Assembly (NCBI GenBank): GCA_003522725.1 | Contig: DPIG01000078.1 | Coordinates: 18,746-82,745 of the forward strand | Direction of reading: 5' to 3' | DNA length: 64,000 nt | Origin: Candidatus Omnitrophota bacterium | GTDB taxonomy: Bacteria > Omnitrophota > Gorgyraeia > Zapsychrales > Zapsychraceae | In this document: positions 2,490-16,295 of the stretch, in pieces | How positions within the stretch are numbered: the stretch's first letter is position 1 | How the letters are laid out: each line of letters begins with the position of its first letter | Made by a program: the position numbers and the translations under genes | The notes under the pieces: generated by a model | Told to the model about the DNA's origin: nothing | Databases searched by the model: none | What the model saw: the letters and a program-made list of their open reading frames with translations, nothing else

Positions 2490-3547
<1,058 letters not shown>

Positions 3548-3777: not shown

Positions 3778-5208
3778 TTATAGTTTACTCAGATTCTCCA
3801 AAAAGTCCTTGTTGGATTTGAATTTACTGATCCGGGCGATGAGGAGCTCCATCGCTTCGGCGGCGTTGAGGTCGTGAATGGCCTTGCGCAACAGCCAAAC
3901 CCTCTGCAGGTCGTCCGAGGGGATGAGCCTTTCTTCATGGCGCGTGTTGGAGCGCCGGATGTCGATGGCCGGGTAGATGCGCCGCTGGAAGAGGTTGCGG
4001 TCCAGCTGTAATTCCATGTTACCCGTTCCCTTGAACTCTTCAAAAATAACTTCGTCCATGCGGCTTCCGGTGTCGACCAGGGCCGTGGCGATGACGGTCA
4101 AGCTGCCGCCTTCTTCGACCGCGCGGGCCGCGCCGAAAAAGCGTTTGGGTTTATGGAGCGCGTTGGAATCCACACCGCCGGAAAGGATCTTCCCGCTGTG
4201 GGGAACGACTGTGTTGTACGCCCGGGCCAGACGCGTGATGCTGTCCAAAAGAATGACGACATCGCGCTTGTGTTCCACAAGACGTTTCGCCTTTTCCAGG
4301 ACCATTTCGGCGATCTGGACGTGGCGTTCGGGCGGTTCGTCGAAAGTCGACGCGACGACTTCGCCGCGCACGCTGCGCTGCATGTCGGTGACCTCTTCGG
4401 GACGCTCGTCGATCAAAAGGACCATCAGGACAACGTCCGGATGATTGTGCATGATCGAATTGGCGATCTTTTGCAATAAAACCGTTTTACCGCTGTAGGG
4501 CGGCGCGACGATGAGCGCGCGCTGCCCCTTGCCGATGGGCGTGATCAAATCCATCAACCGCATGGAGATCTCATCAGATTTCGTCTCCAGGACCATACGG
4601 TCCTGCGGGTAGATCGGCGTGAGGTTGTCGAAAAAGATCTTCTCCTTGCACTTTTCCGGGTTTTCATAGTTGACGGCCTCGACTTTCAGAAGCGCGAAAT
4701 ATTTTTCGCCTTCTTTGGGCGGACGGATATGCCCGCTGACCGTGTCGCCCGTCTTGAGGTCGAACCGGCGGATCTGCGACGGGGAAATGTAGATATCGTC
4801 CGGGCAAGGAAGATAGTTGTAGTTAACACTGCGCAGGAAACCAAAACCTTCCTGCAGGATCTCGAGGGTCCCTTCCCCGAACATCAACCCGGCCTTCTCC
4901 GCCTTTCCTTGCAGGATCTTGAAAATGAGGTCCTGCTTGCGGATGCCGCTGATGCCGTTGATGCCCATGTCCCGGGCGTATTTGGACAGCTCGGCCACGC
5001 TCATGTTCTTGAGCTTGGTGATGTCCAGCTGGTCTTCCTGGCCCTGTGAGGGTTGGACGTTATTTTGCGCGGCGTGGGTGACGGGGCTGATGGGCTCCGA
5101 AACTTCCCTTTTCGCGCTTGTTCTTTCCTTCGCGGACACGGGTCTTTCCCGTTCCACGCCAGATTCCGATTCGGTTACTTTTTTGCTCTTTGTGTCAGTT
5201 TTTGCCAT
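3778..5208 (-). CDS. rho: Transcription termination factor Rho, with a charged N-terminal extension of about 60 aa
   Basis: RNA-binding OB domain, Walker A (PPYSGKT), Q/R loops, 476 aa. The N-terminus is K/E/S-rich low complexity before the conserved [11 protein letters not shown]. Confidence 0.9.
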
Positions 5209-10270: not shown

Positions 10271-11230
10271 CTAACTAGCATTACTGTCGGCCATTTTGGG
10301 AGTCTTAAGCGCCGCGGCGACGGTTGCTCCCTGCTCTTCAAGCACGGTCACCAGCAGGAACCCCGCGTTTTCCTGCCCCGGGGCCGCGCCCGCCTCCTGG
10401 CGAGGCACGCAGGCGGCGTCCAGCGCGAAAACGCCTTCGATCCCGGTCTGGAACTGTTCGTTGACGCGGATCTTGCCGTCGGTGGTGACCGCCGGATCGG
10501 TCAAGACCCTGAAATCGACCGGCGCGTCCGGGAAGATAATGATCTGCGCCGCCAATACCTTGCCCGATTTAAGCCGGATGGCCTTCACGTCCCCTTCACC
10601 CAATATTTCGGCGATCGGATTCGCGGCAACCACACGCAGTTTGTTTTCCTGTCTGGCCCCGGTCAGCTGGCCGGTCGTATCCGCGTTCAGCAAGTCCTGC
10701 GCGATTTGGTCGCTGGTGACCACCCAGATGACCTCCTTGTCCCTTTTCAGAAATGCCGAAGCGATCGATACCCCGCGTGGGGAATCCGACTGGACCACCA
10801 CCGCGTCGATCAATGGCAGAAAGTCGAGGATCTGGTCGAGCTCGGTCAATTGCTGGAGCGTGTAAACACCGTTTTTATTCACACCTTTGATCTCGGGCAG
10901 TTTGTACCCGGGCGCGTCGGTGATAATCAGGACGTCGCCTTCGAAGGCCTGCTTGTCATCGGTCGTGACCTTGCATTTTTTGAGGTTGATGCGCGCGATT
11001 TTCTTGCCCGTCACGACATTGACGCGGTTTTTCTCGTAGTAGTCGTTGGGTTTGTAAAATATCTTTTTGTAATCGACCTCTTTGGCCAAAACGGGCGCGA
11101 ACAAGCCGCGGTCATAGGGATATTCGCCGTCGGTCAAAATGGTCGTCTCGCAGTCGGGCGCGAAGCGCCGGATCTCCTCGATGGCCCTGACCCCCGCGAT
11201 GGAACTGCCCAGAACAAGTATCTTTTTCAT
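10271..11230 (-). CDS. FAD-dependent pyridine nucleotide-disulfide oxidoreductase family protein with a degenerate second dinucleotide-binding motif
   Basis: Start at ATG 11228-11230 with RBS GGAGG. The N-terminus MKKILVLGSSIAGVRAIEEIRRF is a GxGxxG-type FAD fold. The expected second Rossmann motif is replaced by VVVQSDSPRG. 320 aa. The 403-aa ORF-track extension would overlap folD. Confidence 0.6.
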   Translation of the reverse strand: MKKILVLGSSIAGVRAIEEIRRFAPDCETTILTDGEYPYDRGLFAPVLAKEVDYKKIFYKPNDYYEKNRVNVVTGKKIARINLKKCKVTTDDKQAFEGDVLIITDAPGYKLPEIKGVNKNGVYTLQQLTELDQILDFLPLIDAVVVQSDSPRGVSIASAFLKRDKEVIWVVTSDQIAQDLLNADTTGQLTGARQENKLRVVAANPIAEILGEGDVKAIRLKSGKVLAAQIIIFPDAPVDFRVLTDPAVTTDGKIRVNEQFQTGIEGVFALDAACVPRQEAGAAPGQENAGFLLVTVLEEQGATVAAALKTPKMADSNAS

Positions 11231-11231
11231 A

Positions 11232-12107
11232 TTACCTCTTCGCCTCCTGCTGGACCTTGAACGCTTCAATACCGTTACGCATGAGCATGACGACGGTGAC
11301 CGGGCCCACCCCGCCGGGCACCGGCGTGATAAATGACGCCCTCCGGCCCGCTTTTTCAAATTCGATGTCGCCTGTGATTCCGGAGCCCACTTTATTGATC
11401 CCCACGTCAATGACAATGGCGCCTTCCTTGATCCAGTCCCCTTTGATGAGCCCCGCTTTCCCCACCGCGACGACCAGGACATCCGCGCTCCCCACGTGCT
11501 CGACGAGCCGTCCGGCCTGGCTGGTGGCCAGATGACACACGGTGACCGTGGCGTCCTGCGCGAGCAACAGCAAACTCAAAGGTTTGCCGACGATCTCGCT
11601 GTGGCCGACCACGACCGCTTCTTTCCCGCGCAGTTTGACGCCCGTGGAGCGGATAAGTTCCATGACCGCGGCAGGGGTGCAGGGGATGATGCGCGTTTGG
11701 CCCAGCATCATCTTGCCGATATTGGTGACGTTGATGCCTTCGAGGTCCTTGGACGGGGCCACATAGTTGGCCACGGCGCGGTAATCGATCTGGTCGGGCA
11801 CGGGTTTGTGGATCATGATGCCGTGCACGCCGGAATCGCTATCGAGTTCCTTGATGACGCTGATCAGTTTGGCCTGGGTCGTGTCCCCCGAAAGGATCTT
11901 CAGTTCATATTTGATGCCGATATATTCGGCCGTCTTTTTCTGGGAATTGGCGTAGGCGCAGGAACCTGGGTCGGAGCCCACCATCACGTTGACCAGGTGC
12001 GGCACGCCGCCAAAGGTTTCTTTGAGCCGCGCCACTTCCTTTTTGAGCTCGTCCTTGAGCTTTTTGGCCAGGGCCGTACCGTCAAGGATGTGCGCGGTGG
12101 CGTTCAT
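11232..12107 (-). CDS. folD: Bifunctional methylene-THF dehydrogenase / methenyl-THF cyclohydrolase
   Basis: ILDGTALAKK..., motifs (VGSDPGSCAYANSQKK, PCTPAAVMELI, VVVGHSEIVGKP), 291 aa. Confidence 0.92.
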   Translation of the reverse strand: MNATAHILDGTALAKKLKDELKKEVARLKETFGGVPHLVNVMVGSDPGSCAYANSQKKTAEYIGIKYELKILSGDTTQAKLISVIKELDSDSGVHGIMIHKPVPDQIDYRAVANYVAPSKDLEGINVTNIGKMMLGQTRIIPCTPAAVMELIRSTGVKLRGKEAVVVGHSEIVGKPLSLLLLAQDATVTVCHLATSQAGRLVEHVGSADVLVVAVGKAGLIKGDWIKEGAIVIDVGINKVGSGITGDIEFEKAGRRASFITPVPGGVGPVTVVMLMRNGIEAFKVQQEAKR

Positions 12108-12589
12108 TGGTTGATCTCCACGTTGAGCTTCGCCGAATTAAACGCGGCGAGCAAAAGTTCCAGCGCGACCTTCACGTCCGAAACAAGATATTTGTTGCCG
12201 TAGCGAACTAACGTCGGCGCCAATTGCACGGCTTTGTAACATAGTTTGCATGCTTCCAGAGGGACTTCCCTTGCCTTGCGCCGGGCCGCGTTACGCTTCG
12301 CGGGCGCGGCCTTGCGCGTTTTGACAACGTTCAAATACGCCCGCGCGTCCAGGTCAACGAGCGCCAAAAAACGTTTGCGCAATCGCTCGCTCGTCTTGAG
12401 ACTTGCCTTTATCTTTTGTTCATTGGCACGCGATGAGGTCTTACCGAGCGAATAATTCGCGACCATGGACAGAAGCGCCGCCCCAAGCGCCGCCGTCACC
12501 GCCGCCGCCGACCCACCCCCCGGCGCGGGGACCTTGAGCGAGAGCACGCGCGTGTATTCACTTAAACTGTAATTTCGAAAGGGTTTCAT
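12104..12589 (-). CDS. Cyclodeaminase/cyclohydrolase family protein (FTCD C-terminal-like; FchA-type methenyl-THF cyclohydrolase)
   Basis: GGGSAAAVTAALGAALLSMVANYS motif typical of the formiminotransferase-cyclodeaminase C-domain. Overlaps folD by 4 nt (ATGA). Confidence 0.7.
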   Translation of the reverse strand: MKPFRNYSLSEYTRVLSLKVPAPGGGSAAAVTAALGAALLSMVANYSLGKTSSRANEQKIKASLKTSERLRKRFLALVDLDARAYLNVVKTRKAAPAKRNAARRKAREVPLEACKLCYKAVQLAPTLVRYGNKYLVSDVKVALELLLAAFNSAKLNVEINQ

Positions 12590-12597
12590 GGCTGTAA

Positions 12598-12674
12598 GGT
12601 TATCCGATTGTCCGGAAATCCGTGACTGGGTAATCCGGATACCCGGGTATCCGGTTCCTCGGATCCCCGGAACC
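12598..12674. repeat. Array A of degenerate 8-10 bp direct repeats (NNATCCGG type)
   Basis: GGTTATCCG ATTGTCCGG AAATCCG...GTAATCCGG ATACCCGG GTATCCGG TTCCTCGG ATCCCCGG, ending in the inverted GGTTCC...GGAACC. It lies between fchA and the Abi gene. Confidence 0.6.
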
Positions 12675-12716
12675 TGTCAATTTTCACATGCGCTCATCAT
12701 ATCCTAAACACGACGG

Positions 12717-13487
12717 TTATTCAACTTCAAAGGCGTTTTTATCGTGTATCTTTTTCTTCCGAGATTCCCATGTTTGAAAAAGGAATGTAGCCATCGTCCC
12801 GGAAAGATTAACTGCAAGTTCCGCATGCCGTGGTGCTGGCCGGCTCCCTGATACCCCTTTGCCATGCGCATCACTATGTCGGTTTCGTAAAGCGCCTAAT
12901 CCTTCAACGACACTCTGGCAACCACCCAATATCTGTTTAAAAATTTGCTCTGTATGTTGGCTCGGTGAAAGATTAAGCTGTCTGACGGTCAAAGTGTAAA
13001 GTTTGGGGAGGTCGACATCATTGCTATATGTTATGCCTGACTCATCAAGTATATGCTTGCATGCAGATTCAAGCAGCGTGCGAGCTGTTGTAATCGCACC
13101 CTCAGGGTCAGCAGCTCTGCGTTCTAATGCTTTTTGCCAAATTTCTTGAATGTAGGTTGAATCCAAAGTCTGCACAGTTGCGGAAATTGAAGCGTCGCTT
13201 GGCGTGCGTGAATCGGTTTCTAGTGTAGTCAGGAGCGGATCAAACTCTTGCTGTAAGTACCCTCTTCGTTGAGCATAGGTTGCGAATTTCGGCTGAATGA
13301 AACTCCAGAATTCAGAAAGGTTGCGACATGTGTGGACAAAACGAGGTAGTAGCTTTGCAATACGCGGAGATGTAATAAGTTCACGACGTAAATTTTTGTA
13401 TTCCAAGTCGTCACCGTTACCACCGGTCGCATGTGAAACTAGCATTATCTTCAGTGATTCAACTTGATTAATTTTTTCTTCATTCAT
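12717..13487 (-). CDS. Abortive-infection-like protein with a C-terminal HEPN (Abi_C-type) domain
   Basis: The C-terminus (TLLESACKHILDE...LPKLY...LGALRNRHSDAHGKG...RHAELAVNLSGTMATFL) fits the Abi_C/HEPN pattern, with an Rx4H motif (RHSDAH). The gene is visibly AT-rich compared with its neighbours. 256 aa. Confidence 0.65.
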   Translation of the reverse strand: MNEEKINQVESLKIMLVSHATGGNGDDLEYKNLRRELITSPRIAKLLPRFVHTCRNLSEFWSFIQPKFATYAQRRGYLQQEFDPLLTTLETDSRTPSDASISATVQTLDSTYIQEIWQKALERRAADPEGAITTARTLLESACKHILDESGITYSNDVDLPKLYTLTVRQLNLSPSQHTEQIFKQILGGCQSVVEGLGALRNRHSDAHGKGVSGSRPAPRHAELAVNLSGTMATFLFQTWESRKKKIHDKNAFEVE

Positions 13488-13490
13488 GTC

Positions 13491-13597
13491 GTATTATTCC
13501 GCGTTATTTCGGGCGTCTTTGTATTATTCCGGGGACGCGTACTCTCTCTGCGTTATTCCGGCGTTATTCCGCAGGTTATTCCGAGGTTATTCCGGGG
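13491..13597. repeat. Array B: seven copies of the (G)TTATTCCG(G) repeat, the last four in tandem with an 11-12 bp period
   Basis: TATTATTCCGCG GTTATTTCGGG...TATTATTCCGGGG...CGTTATTCCGGCG TTATTCCGCAG GTTATTCCGAG GTTATTCCGGGG. It lies immediately 5' of the Abi gene start. Confidence 0.7.
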
Positions 13598-13710
13598 CCA
13601 CATGACGTAACCTTAATTATTGCCGATTGTGTGTCTTTGCAGACGCTTTAGCTAAGTTCCTGGCTTTGCGTTAATTATAAAACAAATCTTTCACTTCGTG
13701 TTGAGTATTT

Positions 13711-13745
13711 CGGCCCCGCTGTAAGTGGCCCCCGGGCCGCTTTTT
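13711..13745 (+). terminator. Possible plus-strand intrinsic terminator with no plus-strand gene upstream
   Basis: CGGCCC...GGGCCG stem (6 bp, GC-rich, alternative pairings possible) followed by CTTTTTG. The minus-strand complement has no U-tract. Confidence 0.3.
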
Positions 13746-13806
13746 GAATTCGTGATTTTAACATAATTTGAATTCTCGCCGTTCGGCAAGAATTGACTTT
13801 ACAGCT

Positions 13807-14028
13807 TTAACGATAGCTGGCGTGTGTGCCGATATCGTAATAAATCACCTCGTGGGCGTTGATGAAACGAAACAGCACACGGTACTCCCGATTAATGGAA
13901 TACGCCCAATAGTCTTTCAGCGGTCCCTTAAGCTTGTGCGTTCGCAGGGGCGGTGTAAAAGCGTTGTCCCGGAATAACTGGTCTTTCTTGATGGCCAGGT
14001 CTTGAATATGTGTTGGGAGTTTCTGCAC
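13807..14028 (-). CDS. RelE/HigB/YafQ-like mRNA-interferase toxin, N-terminally short, no cognate antitoxin evident
   Basis: LKGPLKDYWAYSINREYRVLFRFINAHEVIYYDIGTHASY matches the conserved C-terminal half of HigB/YafQ-type toxins. The only start is a GTG and the frame closes 6 codons upstream. No HTH antitoxin ORF in the 300 bp downstream. Confidence 0.5.
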   Translation of the reverse strand: MQKLPTHIQDLAIKKDQLFRDNAFTPPLRTHKLKGPLKDYWAYSINREYRVLFRFINAHEVIYYDIGTHASYR

Positions 14029-14075
14029 AATTTGAACTCCCGATAGTCAGCGGAAATCTGGATTTCTAAGGTCTT

Positions 14076-14327
14076 CTAATAGACATCTTTACGATGGCCG
14101 ACGTGCAGAATGACCACCTTTTTATCCCGGTCATGGATATCGTAAATAACGCGGTAACGCCCGACACGGATCCTCCAGCCGGGACGGGCGATCAGCTTCT
14201 TGCTGCCGTGAGGGCGCGGGCTGGAAGAAAGTTTTTCGATATGCTGGCATACACGCTGATAATCAACGGCAGGCAGTCCGGCGAGCTCTTTTTGCGCGCG
14301 GCGAAGGATAAAAACGCTGTAGTTCAT
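14076..14327 (-). CDS. relE: Type II toxin, RelE/ParE family
   Basis: IRVGRYRVIYDIHDRDKKVVILHVGHRKDVY C-terminal signature. 83 aa. Overlaps the upstream antitoxin by ATGA. Confidence 0.8.
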   Translation of the reverse strand: MNYSVFILRRAQKELAGLPAVDYQRVCQHIEKLSSSPRPHGSKKLIARPGWRIRVGRYRVIYDIHDRDKKVVILHVGHRKDVY

Positions 14328-14527
14328 TTGCGGGAGCGTTCAATTTCTTTTCTGGCTTGGGCGAACGGGATGGATTCCTCGCCGGACGCCTTGGCCGCGT
14401 CATAAGCTCGGATGGACTCGAGCTCTTCAGCCTGCCTGATGAGTCGGCGATATTCCCTGTTGGTCAGGACGACCCCCACCTGGCGGCCATGGGAATCAAC
14501 AACATGATTCTCTTTTATTTTAATCAT
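14324..14527 (-). CDS. Type II antitoxin, Phd/YefM-like
   Basis: MIKIKENHVVDSHGRQVGVVLTNREYRRLIRQAEELESIRAYDAAK... Start placed at ATG 14525-14527, preceded by AAGGAG. The ORF-track TTG start at 14554 is less likely. Confidence 0.7.
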   Translation of the reverse strand: MIKIKENHVVDSHGRQVGVVLTNREYRRLIRQAEELESIRAYDAAKASGEESIPFAQARKEIERSRK

Positions 14528-14636
14528 GGGCACTCCTTTTTTCAAAAGTTTCAAAGGTCATCCCTTTGGTGAATGACTCGACTTTTTCAATGGCATCGAC
14601 AATATCGGCGACATAATCCCGGTATTGACGGATCAT
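14520..14636 (-). pseudogene. Remnant (38 codons) of a HepT/HEPN toxin gene, truncated where the Phd start codon begins
   Basis: Minus-strand translation MIRQYRDYVADIVDAIEKVESFTKGMTFETFEKRSAHD* matches the conserved N-terminus of HepT (DUF86) toxins. Its ATG overlaps the MNT stop (ATGA), the typical MNT-HepT coupling. The frame is cut by a TAA that overlaps the Phd ATG. Confidence 0.6.
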
Positions 14637-14926
14637 ACGTAAACAACCTCACGCATGATGTATTTACCGATAGTAGGCTTTAACGAACCTTTCATGACGA
14701 GATCAACGCGTTTTTTCAATATGGCGCTAAGGCGGTTTTCCGTCCGGACATAATCGAAAAGGCCGGGGGTCTGGCTGAATTCAACGAGGATGTCGACGTC
14801 ACTGTTCTTTTTTTGCTTTCCACGCACGTAGGAACCAAAGACACCCAGCATCTTGACCTTGAATTGTCGCTTCAGGGCGGATTTGTTCTGTTTTAAAACT
14901 TGTTTGATTTTATCCAGTTCGCTCAT
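14633..14926 (-). CDS. Minimal nucleotidyltransferase (MNT) antitoxin of a HepT/MNT pair
   Basis: GVFGSYVRGKQKKNSDVDILVEF is the GS...DxD pol-beta-type NTase motif. About 97 aa. Alternative TTG start at 14932. Confidence 0.75.
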   Translation of the reverse strand: MSELDKIKQVLKQNKSALKRQFKVKMLGVFGSYVRGKQKKNSDVDILVEFSQTPGLFDYVRTENRLSAILKKRVDLVMKGSLKPTIGKYIMREVVYV

Positions 14927-14992
14927 AGTCAAAGTATATCATAATTATCTGCCTGCCGATGAAAGCATTTTTACGTTTTTCGGGCTGTTTTT

Positions 14993-15014
14993 GGTTATTC
15001 CGTGGTTATTCCGG
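14993..15014. repeat. Array C: two tandem copies of GGTTATTCCG(G)
   Basis: GGTTATTCCGT GGTTATTCCGGG, immediately 5' of the MNT gene and adjoining the 15013-15054 inverted repeat. Confidence 0.6.
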
Positions 15015-15054
15015 GACACAATACTTAACTCACAGCAATTAAGTATCGTGTCCC
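15013..15054. repeat. 16-bp near-perfect inverted repeat spanning the symporter stop codon
   Basis: GGGACACAATACTTAA-(10 nt)-TTAAGTATCGTGTCCC, one mismatch. No U-tract on either strand. A related half-site lies at 22793-22815. Confidence 0.6.
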
Positions 15055-16295
15055 TCTTGCGGGAGCCATTTCGGCCCGTTCATGACGCGCGCGACGAGCA
15101 TGCCGCTGACGTTATCGCCCACCACGTTGACCATGGTCGCCGGCGGGTCAACGAGCGTGCCCACCATGGTGATAATGGGCATGGCCTCGATGGGAAAACC
15201 AAAGAGCGTGATGATCAAAAGCTCCCCCAGCATACCGCCGGAAGGGATGCCGCTGATGACCGTGCCGCATAAAAGGGCCACGGCCACAACCGAGACCAGC
15301 GTTTCAACGCCGGAAAAGGGCATGCCGAAGATCCCGAACAATAACGCCATCTTCACGACCGCGGCCAGGCTCGAGCCGTCGCTGTGCACCGAGGCGCCGA
15401 TATTGACCACGACCTCCCGCACGTCTTCGGGGATGCCGATTCTTTTCGCGGCCTCAAGGTTGACCGGCAAGGTCGCCAGCCCGCTCCCCGTCCCCCACGC
15501 GGTCACCGCGGCCGGAAGGATATTGGACCAAAGGAGCCGGATGCCCCGGACCCCTCCCGCCAGCCACGCGTAGAAAGAAAATCCGATAAAAAAATACGCC
15601 AGCGCCAGGGGATAATAGAGCGCGATCACACGGACATACGACCCTAAAAGCTGCGGGCCGAAGACGCCGACCAGATACGCGAAGTACGCGCCCAGGCCGA
15701 CGGGCGCGTAGAGCATGACGTAGCCGATGGCCCTGGTCATCACGTCGTTGCCCGCCGCGAGAAATTGCGCGAAGGGTTTCCCCCTCGCCCCAACGGCCGA
15801 GGCCGCCAGCCCGATCAGGAACGCGAACAGGATCAGGGCGAACATGTTCTGTTTGGAGAATAATTCCGTAAAGTCCGTGACCGTGAGGGTGCGCACGATC
15901 TGCTCGCCGATATCGACCTTTTCGGCCTGGACGGGCTGGTTGAAAGCGATCCGGATGCCTTCCGCGGGCGGATAGAACTTGACACCGACGATCATCACGG
16001 CCGCGGCAATGATCCCGGTCACCACAAATATCAGGACCATCCACCCCATGATCTTGCCCAGGCGTTTGACGTCCGTCATTTGGGCCACGGTCGAGGAAAT
16101 GGCGAAGAAGACCAGCGGTACGACGATCGTGAACAACAGATTAAGGAAGATGTCCCCCAGAGGCTTGAGGACGGCGGCGTTCGATTTCATCAGCGCGCCG
16201 ACCAACGAGCCGACGGCGATGGATGCGATAAGAAGAATCGAGAAACGATAGGATTTCAGAAAGGTTGGTTTATTATTCATACGTATGGCCGCCAT
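15039..16295 (-). CDS. Dicarboxylate/amino acid:cation symporter (DAACS/GltP-SstT family)
   Basis: Polytopic protein of 418 aa with the family hallmarks (GASVHSDGSSL..., GIPSGGMLG..., re-entrant loop motifs). Alternative start at Met6. Confidence 0.8.
   Translation of the reverse strand: MAAIRMNNKPTFLKSYRFSILLIASIAVGSLVGALMKSNAAVLKPLGDIFLNLLFTIVVPLVFFAISSTVAQMTDVKRLGKIMGWMVLIFVVTGIIAAAVMIVGVKFYPPAEGIRIAFNQPVQAEKVDIGEQIVRTLTVTDFTELFSKQNMFALILFAFLIGLAASAVGARGKPFAQFLAAGNDVMTRAIGYVMLYAPVGLGAYFAYLVGVFGPQLLGSYVRVIALYYPLALAYFFIGFSFYAWLAGGVRGIRLLWSNILPAAVTAWGTGSGLATLPVNLEAAKRIGIPEDVREVVVNIGASVHSDGSSLAAVVKMALLFGIFGMPFSGVETLVSVVAVALLCGTVISGIPSGGMLGELLIITLFGFPIEAMPIITMVGTLVDPPATMVNVVGDNVSGMLVARVMNGPKWLPQEGHDT

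Follow-up and report, generated by a model that had tools for sequence, protein, structure and literature searches.

A truncated hepT gene joined to a phd-relE pair in a toxin–antitoxin island of a groundwater Candidatus Omnitrophota genome

We examined a toxin–antitoxin (TA) locus in a 64 kb stretch of DNA (hereafter referred to as the window) from a groundwater Candidatus Omnitrophota genome. At this locus an MNT antitoxin gene is followed by the 5′ end of a hepT toxin gene, which runs directly into a phd-relE pair; the MNT-to-relE genes all lie on the minus strand. An earlier note, made from the sequence alone, had delimited the locus as 14324-14932, a span that takes in MNT, the 38-codon hepT-like open reading frame (ORF) and phd and leaves relE (14076-14327) outside. 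The features, from the MNT promoter onwards (nt, nucleotides; aa, amino acids), are as follows.

14927..14980, minus strand: cassette promoter piece 5′ of MNT, with the extended -10 TGATATACT; the same piece is found in relatives
14633..14926, minus strand: mntA-like MNT nucleotidyltransferase antitoxin, 97 aa from its ATG, intact; Pfam NTP_transf_2 and Polbeta
14520..14636, minus strand: hepT′ remnant ORF of 38 codons, without the HEPN motif RX4HXY (catalysis and AMPylation)
14538..14636, minus strand: hepT-derived part of this ORF (codons 1-33, delimited by DNA alignment), 88-91% aa identity to intact HepTs
14538..14549, minus strand: junction patch ACTTTTGAAAAA, which fits both hepT codons 30-33 and the native phd leader just past its -10 box
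14324..14527, minus strand: phd-like antitoxin of full length (67 aa); match to Pfam PhdYeFM under the cut-off (E=6.5e-4)
14076..14327, minus strand: relE/parE-family toxin, 83 aa, intact; Pfam ParE_toxin 1.8e-9
13807..14075, minus strand: tox2′, a second toxin gene (RelE/StbE/YafQ-like), now a pseudogene, which begins right behind the relE stop; TIGR02385 4.4e-6
13641..13795, minus strand: repeat element (hairpin half) at the end of the cassette block, including GAATTCAAAAAGCGGCC (13735-13751)

The MNT gene is intact, as the earlier note had it. Its product matches Pfam NTP_transf_2 (E=2.4e-16) and Polbeta (E=5.6e-14), carries the GSX10DXD motif in the form GS-YVRGKQKKNS-DVD, and scores 51 bits (1.1e-13) against NCBIfam MntA, under the 60-bit equivalog cut-off. 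The definitions of this motif and of RX4HXY were those of PMC7641770. The ratios of non-synonymous to synonymous change (pN/pS), calculated against nine alleles and relatives, were 0.06-0.16, indicating that MNT is under purifying selection; it is an orphan antitoxin on which selection persists. Upstream of the gene, the extended -10 TGATATACT (within 14924-14941, with TATACT at 14933-14938), which occurs only once in the window, stops 6 nt short of the MNT ATG. The promoter piece is also present 5′ of MNT in the related loci L010, L012 and L013 and, at 93% identity, 5′ of an antitoxin2-tox2 pair in L064, and it would serve here as the promoter for MNT. An extended -10 box likewise lies just before MNT (before position 3001) in L012, L013 and L014, with no Shine-Dalgarno site. 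The end of the -10 box 6 nt before the ATG, together with the lack of a Shine-Dalgarno site, suggests that the MNT mRNA is leaderless in this clade.

The MNT TGA overlaps the hepT′ ATG as ATGA (14633-14636), as in the relatives, and the 38-codon ORF opened by this ATG has the translation MIRQYRDYVADIVDAIEKVESFTKGMTFETFEKRSAHD, which had been taken for a HepT N-terminus. We established its HepT identity from the genomic neighbours of MNT homologues, which were obtained by scanning one genome per species with the MNT protein as query. This yielded six close MNT relatives (76-93% aa identity), all of them in Candidatus Omnitrophota metagenome-assembled genomes (MAGs) or MAGs labelled Planctomycetales. 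The intact MNT-HepT pairs that the earlier note had proposed to look for in related genomes were found in four of them (L012, L014, L015 and L017, of which L012 and L014 are paralogues in one MAG), where a 76-92%-identical MNT overlaps, by the same ATGA, the gene for an intact protein of 112-114 aa. That of L012 is clearly a HepT (Pfam HepT-like, 1.4e-30) and carries RNKLIHEY, an instance of RX4HXY, and the motif is likewise present in its orthologues from L014, L015 and L017. Residues 1-33 of the window ORF are 88-91% identical to the N-termini of the intact L012 and L014 HepTs (tblastn E ~1e-15). The proposed alignment to a HepT profile was less telling: the fragment alone matched Pfam HepT-like weakly, at E=0.066 (residues 13-33 on profile positions 2-22), and the intact HepTs of the relatives decide its identity. 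NCBIfam gave no match to the 38-aa fragment, Phd or RelE, and a word-index search for the 38-aa ORF recovered nothing beyond the ORF itself and a single 87% variant, and no full-length HepT. The alignments to intact relatives confirm the 38-codon frame as a genuine hepT 5′ remnant. Because RX4HXY falls past the truncation point, the HepT toxin is presumably dead here, with both its catalytic motif and its AMPylation site gone, and the earlier reading of an inactivated toxin stands to this extent. As for the missing 3′ portion, hepT residues 34-114, including the RX4HXY region, were not found in the 64 kb by tblastn with three intact HepTs (best E=0.33).

To locate the breakpoint we used DNA alignments. 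The hepT homology stops at the 12-nt patch ACTTTTGAAAAA, and the AGGAGTGCCCATGATT that follows is the phd leader and start. In L012, the sequence of hepT codons 29-35 is GAAACTTTTGAAAAGGAC; the native phd leaders have TATACTTTTATTGAAAGGGG (L032) and TATACTTTTGTTGAGAGGAA (L036), and the window junction has GAAACTTTTGAAAAAAGGAGTG, such that the 12 nt are compatible with an origin in either parent. Codons 34-38 of hepT′ (RSAHD) and the TAA consist of phd DNA, namely its Shine-Dalgarno leader and start, in a different reading frame. The break does coincide with the start of the Phd/RelE pair, as previously described. However, the switch from hepT to phd does not fall exactly at the stop/start but after codon 33, ~11 nt before the phd ATG, and the TAA (14520-14522) does not overlap this ATG (14525-14527); it is the ORFs that overlap, by 8 nt, with the text ATGATTAA. 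The shared patch suggests that the hepT′/phd join was microhomology-mediated.

Independent groundwater assemblies contain 23 contigs, up to 146 kb long, that encode the exact 38-aa product, and the gene order does not vary among them; across 7 kb, one of these contigs matches the window at 100% identity. The hepT′-phd structure is therefore real and not an assembly artefact. Given the metagenomic origin of the window and the presence of MNT-HepT paralogues in these genomes, a chimeric join made during assembly had to be considered, but recurrence of the exact junction on contigs from several projects and assemblers makes it hardly conceivable, and we rejected it.

The phd and relE genes downstream of the junction are both complete. 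Phd is of full length, as judged from its 232 homologues, most of which are 66-69 aa at 100% coverage; many of these carry recorded PF18506 or PF02604 matches and are paired with ParE_toxin genes. A Shine-Dalgarno site, AAAGGAG, lies at 14532-14538, with its GGAG ~5 nt before the phd ATG. The relE ATG overlaps the phd stop as ATGA, and RelE, whose homologues are 83-84 aa, scores 38.5 bits against Pfam ParE_toxin (cut-off 23). Judged by its sequences, Phd-RelE would be the only complete module at the locus. The pN/pS values of 0.10-0.18 for phd and 0.09-0.21 for relE point to purifying selection on both genes, which lends indirect support to the presumed toxicity of RelE and its neutralisation by Phd. 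In L036, L034 and L063 the homology to the window extends from a few nt 5′ of the phd ATG to the relE stop, with unrelated flanks, so that phd-relE can be regarded as a mobile unit. Viral contigs contained neither the junction nor MNT relatives and thus gave no sign of a phage vehicle.

Native phd cassettes (L032, L036 and L034) have a TATACT ~25 nt before the ATG. In the window, hepT′ coding sequence replaces it, and a consensus promoter scan found no site able to serve phd. As the native -10 box is lost and the sole nearby promoter-like match is misplaced, transcription of phd and relE probably starts at the MNT promoter, the two being the last ORFs of a four-ORF unit. Autoregulation of the pair via its own operator has probably been lost.

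The 3′ side of the pair also bears on the order of events. The tox2′ pseudogene has an AAG in place of its start codon in the window, a frameshift near 14030 that divides it between two frames, and no antitoxin of its own; when repaired for the frameshift, its sequence matches YafQ/HigB-like profiles. An intact 90-aa tox2 orthologue with a 69-aa antitoxin is present in the same island of L064 (7128-7612) and is 77% identical to tox2′ in aa sequence and 88% identical in nt sequence over the 3′ 219 nt. In L032, the relE stop TAG is followed by ATG ACC TTA GAA..., which is the tox2 start, and only the first 58 nt of tox2 are left (3250-3307); here a recombination event involving the repeat element, at GAGTTCAAATTGT, appears to have shortened tox2 further. 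The syntenic loci L032/L033 consist of a gene for a 310-aa membrane protein, phd-relE, these 58 nt of tox2, the repeat element and FTCD_C-folD. The phd-relE-tox2′ block of L032 thus occupies the same chromosomal position as that of the window and is 90% identical to it in nt sequence (flanking genes, 72-77%), without the SDF symporter gene, MNT or hepT, and its phd retains its own TATACT -10 box and leader. Because the relE-stop/tox2-start junction is common to the window and L032, it is older than the hepT′/phd junction, and the window state is the derived one. Upstream of MNT, the closest relative by flanking genes, JACRHP010000009.1 (L058 and L013; 310-aa gene 88% and SDF 91% nt identical), has the same SDF-MNT adjacency as the window, with the SDF stop 105 nt before MNT, and MNT-hepT was therefore resident in this lineage.

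The loss of hepT is not confined to the window. Two of the six other close MNT loci, L013 and L016, have lost hepT independently, both of them with a 97-aa MNT. In L013 (3291-3350), hepT ends after codon 4, and the -10 box of a DUF4160/DUF2442 cassette follows directly (CAG|ATATACT). L016 (1258-1362) has an in-frame internal hepT deletion that leaves a 34-aa ORF of 16 N-terminal and 18 C-terminal residues. The window and L013 junctions both lie in or beside the TATACT box of the next cassette. In view of these independent losses the event is not very unusual, contrary to how it had been rated.

Taken together, these results argue that the locus probably arose by fusion of neighbouring MNT/hepT and phd-relE-tox2′ cassettes through one deletion or recombination in a decaying TA array; ordinary TA decay, and not a nested insertion, is the most likely nature of the event. 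The ancestor of the lineage would have carried an SDF-MNT-HepT module, with a phd-relE block, already joined to tox2, that was either adjacent or imported. One illegitimate recombination or deletion within the 12-nt patch would then have joined hepT codon 33 to the phd leader, with the loss of hepT codons 34 to ~114 (including RX4HXY, the RNase and AMPylation motif), an intergenic element and the phd promoter. The outcome would be a four-ORF unit, MNT-hepT′-phd-relE, with the overlaps ATGA, ATGATTAA and ATGA and a probable leaderless MNT promoter. By an alternative route, the block may have been imported by homologous recombination at the tox2 or repeat-element side combined with an illegitimate join at the other side.

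Several points weigh against this history. A direct precursor, in which phd-relE follows MNT and an intact HepT, was not found, and a scan of metagenome contigs with RelE returned only relatives at ≤53% identity and no precursor locus; a simple deletion is therefore indistinguishable from block import with one illegitimate end. A loss of SDF-MNT-hepT from L032 is equally conceivable, and the polarity for the island as a whole is drawn from few relatives. The microhomology at the junction was spotted post hoc. Finally, transcription of phd-relE from the MNT promoter is something that we infer, and a weak promoter-like site does lie at 14517-14545, with its -10 box downstream of the phd ATG.

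The earlier note had instead seen a module within a module, with the toxin inactivated by insertion of a TA pair. In its explicit form, a mobile phd-relE cassette would have entered codon 33 of an intact hepT, whose 3′ part would have disappeared at a later stage. The sharp ends of the phd-relE unit in L036, L034 and L063 would suit such a history, but after an insertion the 3′ part of hepT should lie downstream of relE, and tblastn detected no remnant of it in the window. Instead relE abuts tox2, through a junction shared with L032, which is free of hepT and holds the phd-relE-tox2′ block with its own promoter at the same site. Nested insertion would furthermore need two events in place of one, and the inserted DNA would have to start inside its own leader. 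We consider it decidedly improbable and favour fusion or replacement. It also seems improbable that the 38-codon ORF has been retained for a function, either as a translational-coupling bridge from MNT to phd or as a small MNT-binding peptide. The overlaps (ATGA and ATGATTAA) are all intact, and the divergent L001 allele still has 38 codons and no premature stop despite six nt changes. However, phd has a good Shine-Dalgarno site of its own, and five of the six L001 changes are non-synonymous (pN/pS 1.24, from few sites), as fits relaxed constraint. Two of them, Y5C and K33N, hit positions that are invariant in the four intact HepTs examined, and the junction is apparently recent.

Mosaic alleles raise the further question of what happened after the fusion. 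On three short contigs (L001, L009 and L010), the MNT alleles stand at a synonymous divergence (pS) of 0.35-0.51 from the window MNT and share 85-91% nt identity with each other and with L012 and L013, whereas the hepT′-phd-relE sequence behind them is identical, with 0 differences in 475-750 nt. Counted from the hepT′ ATG, the mismatches come to an end at -8, -30 and +36/+98. Of the six changes in L001, five fall in the 5′ stretch of hepT′ and the sixth at the junction, the rest of hepT′-phd-relE being free of differences; with mismatches within 63 nt of the junction, it is no assembly chimera. L009 and L010 are contigs of < 1 kb in which 107-129 identical nt separate the junction from the last mismatch, and a strain-chimeric assembly is unlikely for them. 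The identical block thus sits behind at least two, and probably four, divergent MNT alleles, which points to recombination.

One extension of the fusion history, which we regard as unlikely, is that the fused hepT′-phd-relE-tox2′ allele later spread horizontally to other MNT-HepT loci and replaced intact HepTs, with the conserved MNT 3′ end and the hepT 5′ remnant as the left arm and the downstream repeat element or tox2 as the right arm. It would explain why the MNTs of L001, L009 and L010 are as distant from each other as from those of L012 and L013 while the block is identical, and why the sequence upstream of MNT in L010 differs from that of the window; the right-hand repeat element, moreover, also follows the intact hepT in L012. 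The same pattern would be seen, however, if MNT at one locus had been overwritten by gene conversion from paralogous MNT-HepT modules, which do exist (L012 and L014 in one MAG). The shortness of the L009 and L010 contigs leaves room for strain chimerism in these two, and a right-hand crossover was not seen. The specific proposal that the hepT′ remnant and the MNT 3′ end act as a homology arm, by which the fused allele invades MNT-HepT loci across lineages of ~10% divergence, we hold to be rather doubtful.

The locus lies in a hypervariable island, which extends from the 310-aa membrane-protein gene (accompanied in the window by the SDF symporter gene) to FTCD_C-folD. Its content was different in every relative examined (window 12717-16295 compared with L032, L058, L060, L062 and L064); TA-like pairs, ORF6N, DUF6998 and Abi_C make up most of it. 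Among the loci seen, the Abi_C gene occurs only in the window lineage.

12717-13487, window: Abi_C gene, after the repeat element
L060 island: two ORF6N genes and a 139-aa ORF
L062 island: an RHH-ParE pair and two ORF6N genes
L064 island: the intact 69-aa antitoxin and 90-aa toxin (tox2′ orthologue), and DUF6998
L058 island: ~7 kb of other genes, then SDF-MNT

The 310-aa orthologue of L032 (1792-2757) is split into ORFs of 224 and 60 aa, probably a frameshift or a pseudogene. In a comparison of the window with a 99.1%-identical strain variant (L003), 34 of the 36 differences fell within the last 600 nt compared (window 11000-11600), in the folD / Pyr_redox_2 region, and this cluster looks like a separate recombination tract.

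Copies of the hairpin-half repeat element follow TA-like cassettes in L012 (twice), L013, L032, L060, L062 and L064, and one precedes MNT in L010. A search of Rfam with 12500-15200 gave no family match to this element, only a chance-level one (E=0.4). By eye it shows no R''/R' integron core sites; we do not claim integron membership, and no integrase search was made. The element is one part of a two-part repeat, in which the hairpin half reads ...GAATTCAAATTGTGCGGAAACGCACGAATTCAAAAAGCGGCC... and the promoter half reads AAAAACGTAAAAATGCTTTCATCGGCAGG.AGATA.TT.TGATATACTTT, and in the window the two halves (13641-13795 and 14927-14980, respectively) stand at opposite ends of the TA block. In several Omnitrophota genomes the two-part repeat bounds unrelated cassettes, namely MNT-HepT, antitoxin2-tox2, a DUF5674 pair, DUF4160/DUF2442 and ORF6N (L012 ~2860-3000, 3800-3954 and 4760-4930; L013 2924-2944 and 3907-3964; L064 6965-7127; L062 9728-9777 and 10442-10491). 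It may represent a terminator-promoter unit that also provides homology for cassette exchange.

We also noted a repeat with an 11-nt period, CGGAATAAC(NN), which in the 64 kb occurs only at 13493-13595 and 14992-15013 (9 matches against 1.5 expected). Four tandem and two degenerate units lie just 5′ of the Abi_C ATG, and two units lie between the SDF terminator hairpin and the MNT promoter. A direct repeat of 22/23 nt (14993-15015 and 13574-13596) flanks the entire TA block. The strain variant L004 lacks 62 nt of the array, and a sequence similar to the array is present downstream of tox2 in L064 (7639-7773). The repeat could serve as a set of operators, or as a site of insertion or recombination.

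Among known systems, those closest to the locus include the type VII HepT/MntA (HEPN/MNT) pairs of class I, PF01934/PF01909 (Yao et al. 2020, PMC7641770). The locus shares with them a PF01909 MNT with GSX10DXD, encoded upstream of hepT and overlapping it as ATGA, and the HepTs of its relatives have RX4HXY. It differs in that 33 HepT codons are left and no PF01934 HEPN toxin with RX4HXY is adjacent, giving an orphan antitoxin and a pseudogene in place of a working pair. In systems of this type HepT is neutralised through AMPylation by MNT, and the window encodes no HepT cognate to its MNT. With type II Phd/YefM-RelE/ParE systems it shares a small antitoxin encoded 5′ of, and coupled by ATGA to, an 83-aa toxin of the ParE_toxin family and RelE/ParE fold, both proteins being of full length; it also shares purifying selection on the two genes and the behaviour of a two-gene unit that moves between many contexts. 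Unlike the pairs of L032, L036 and L034, which keep their -10 box and upstream region, the window pair has, at the level of sequence, no promoter or operator of its own and forms the third and fourth ORFs of a longer unit.

Orphan antitoxins and decaying TA loci are well known. As in other cases of chromosomal TA decay, the toxin has been inactivated while the antitoxin ORF persists, and independent toxin losses recur in related loci; the lesion of the window, in a lineage of uncultured Omnitrophota, differs in being a precise fusion to the next cassette, whose outcome is a hybrid type VII/type II operon. The locus resembles the products of two processes known from the transformation literature, homology-facilitated illegitimate recombination and microhomology-mediated deletion, in having one junction in a 12-nt patch and ordinary homologous sequence (tox2 and the repeat element) on the other side. 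It differs in that no donor/recipient pair was observed, the mechanism being read from the sequence scar. In Klebsiella, 2253 occurrences of orphan antitoxins have been recorded, and the idea that these act in anti-addiction has been discussed (Horesh et al. 2020, PMC7192599).

The locus offers a breakpoint-resolved natural example of the erosion and reshuffling of a TA array. In this example loss of the toxin comes first and selection maintains the antitoxin, adjacent cassettes are fused at short shared sequences near the -10 box of the next cassette, and a type II pair is probably placed under the promoter of a type VII antitoxin. The interval from the 310-aa membrane-protein gene to FTCD_C-folD is a cassette hotspot in groundwater Omnitrophota, in which the same promoter/hairpin repeat bounds unrelated modules. 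The findings do not change the understanding of TA systems; their value is as documentation and as a lead for a population-level study of cassette exchange in an uncultured phylum. If the hepT′ remnant and the MNT 3′ end do act as a homology arm, the locus would represent TA competition via homologous recombination, in which a type II module displaces a type VII toxin and the orphan MNT would make the loss of HepT harmless.

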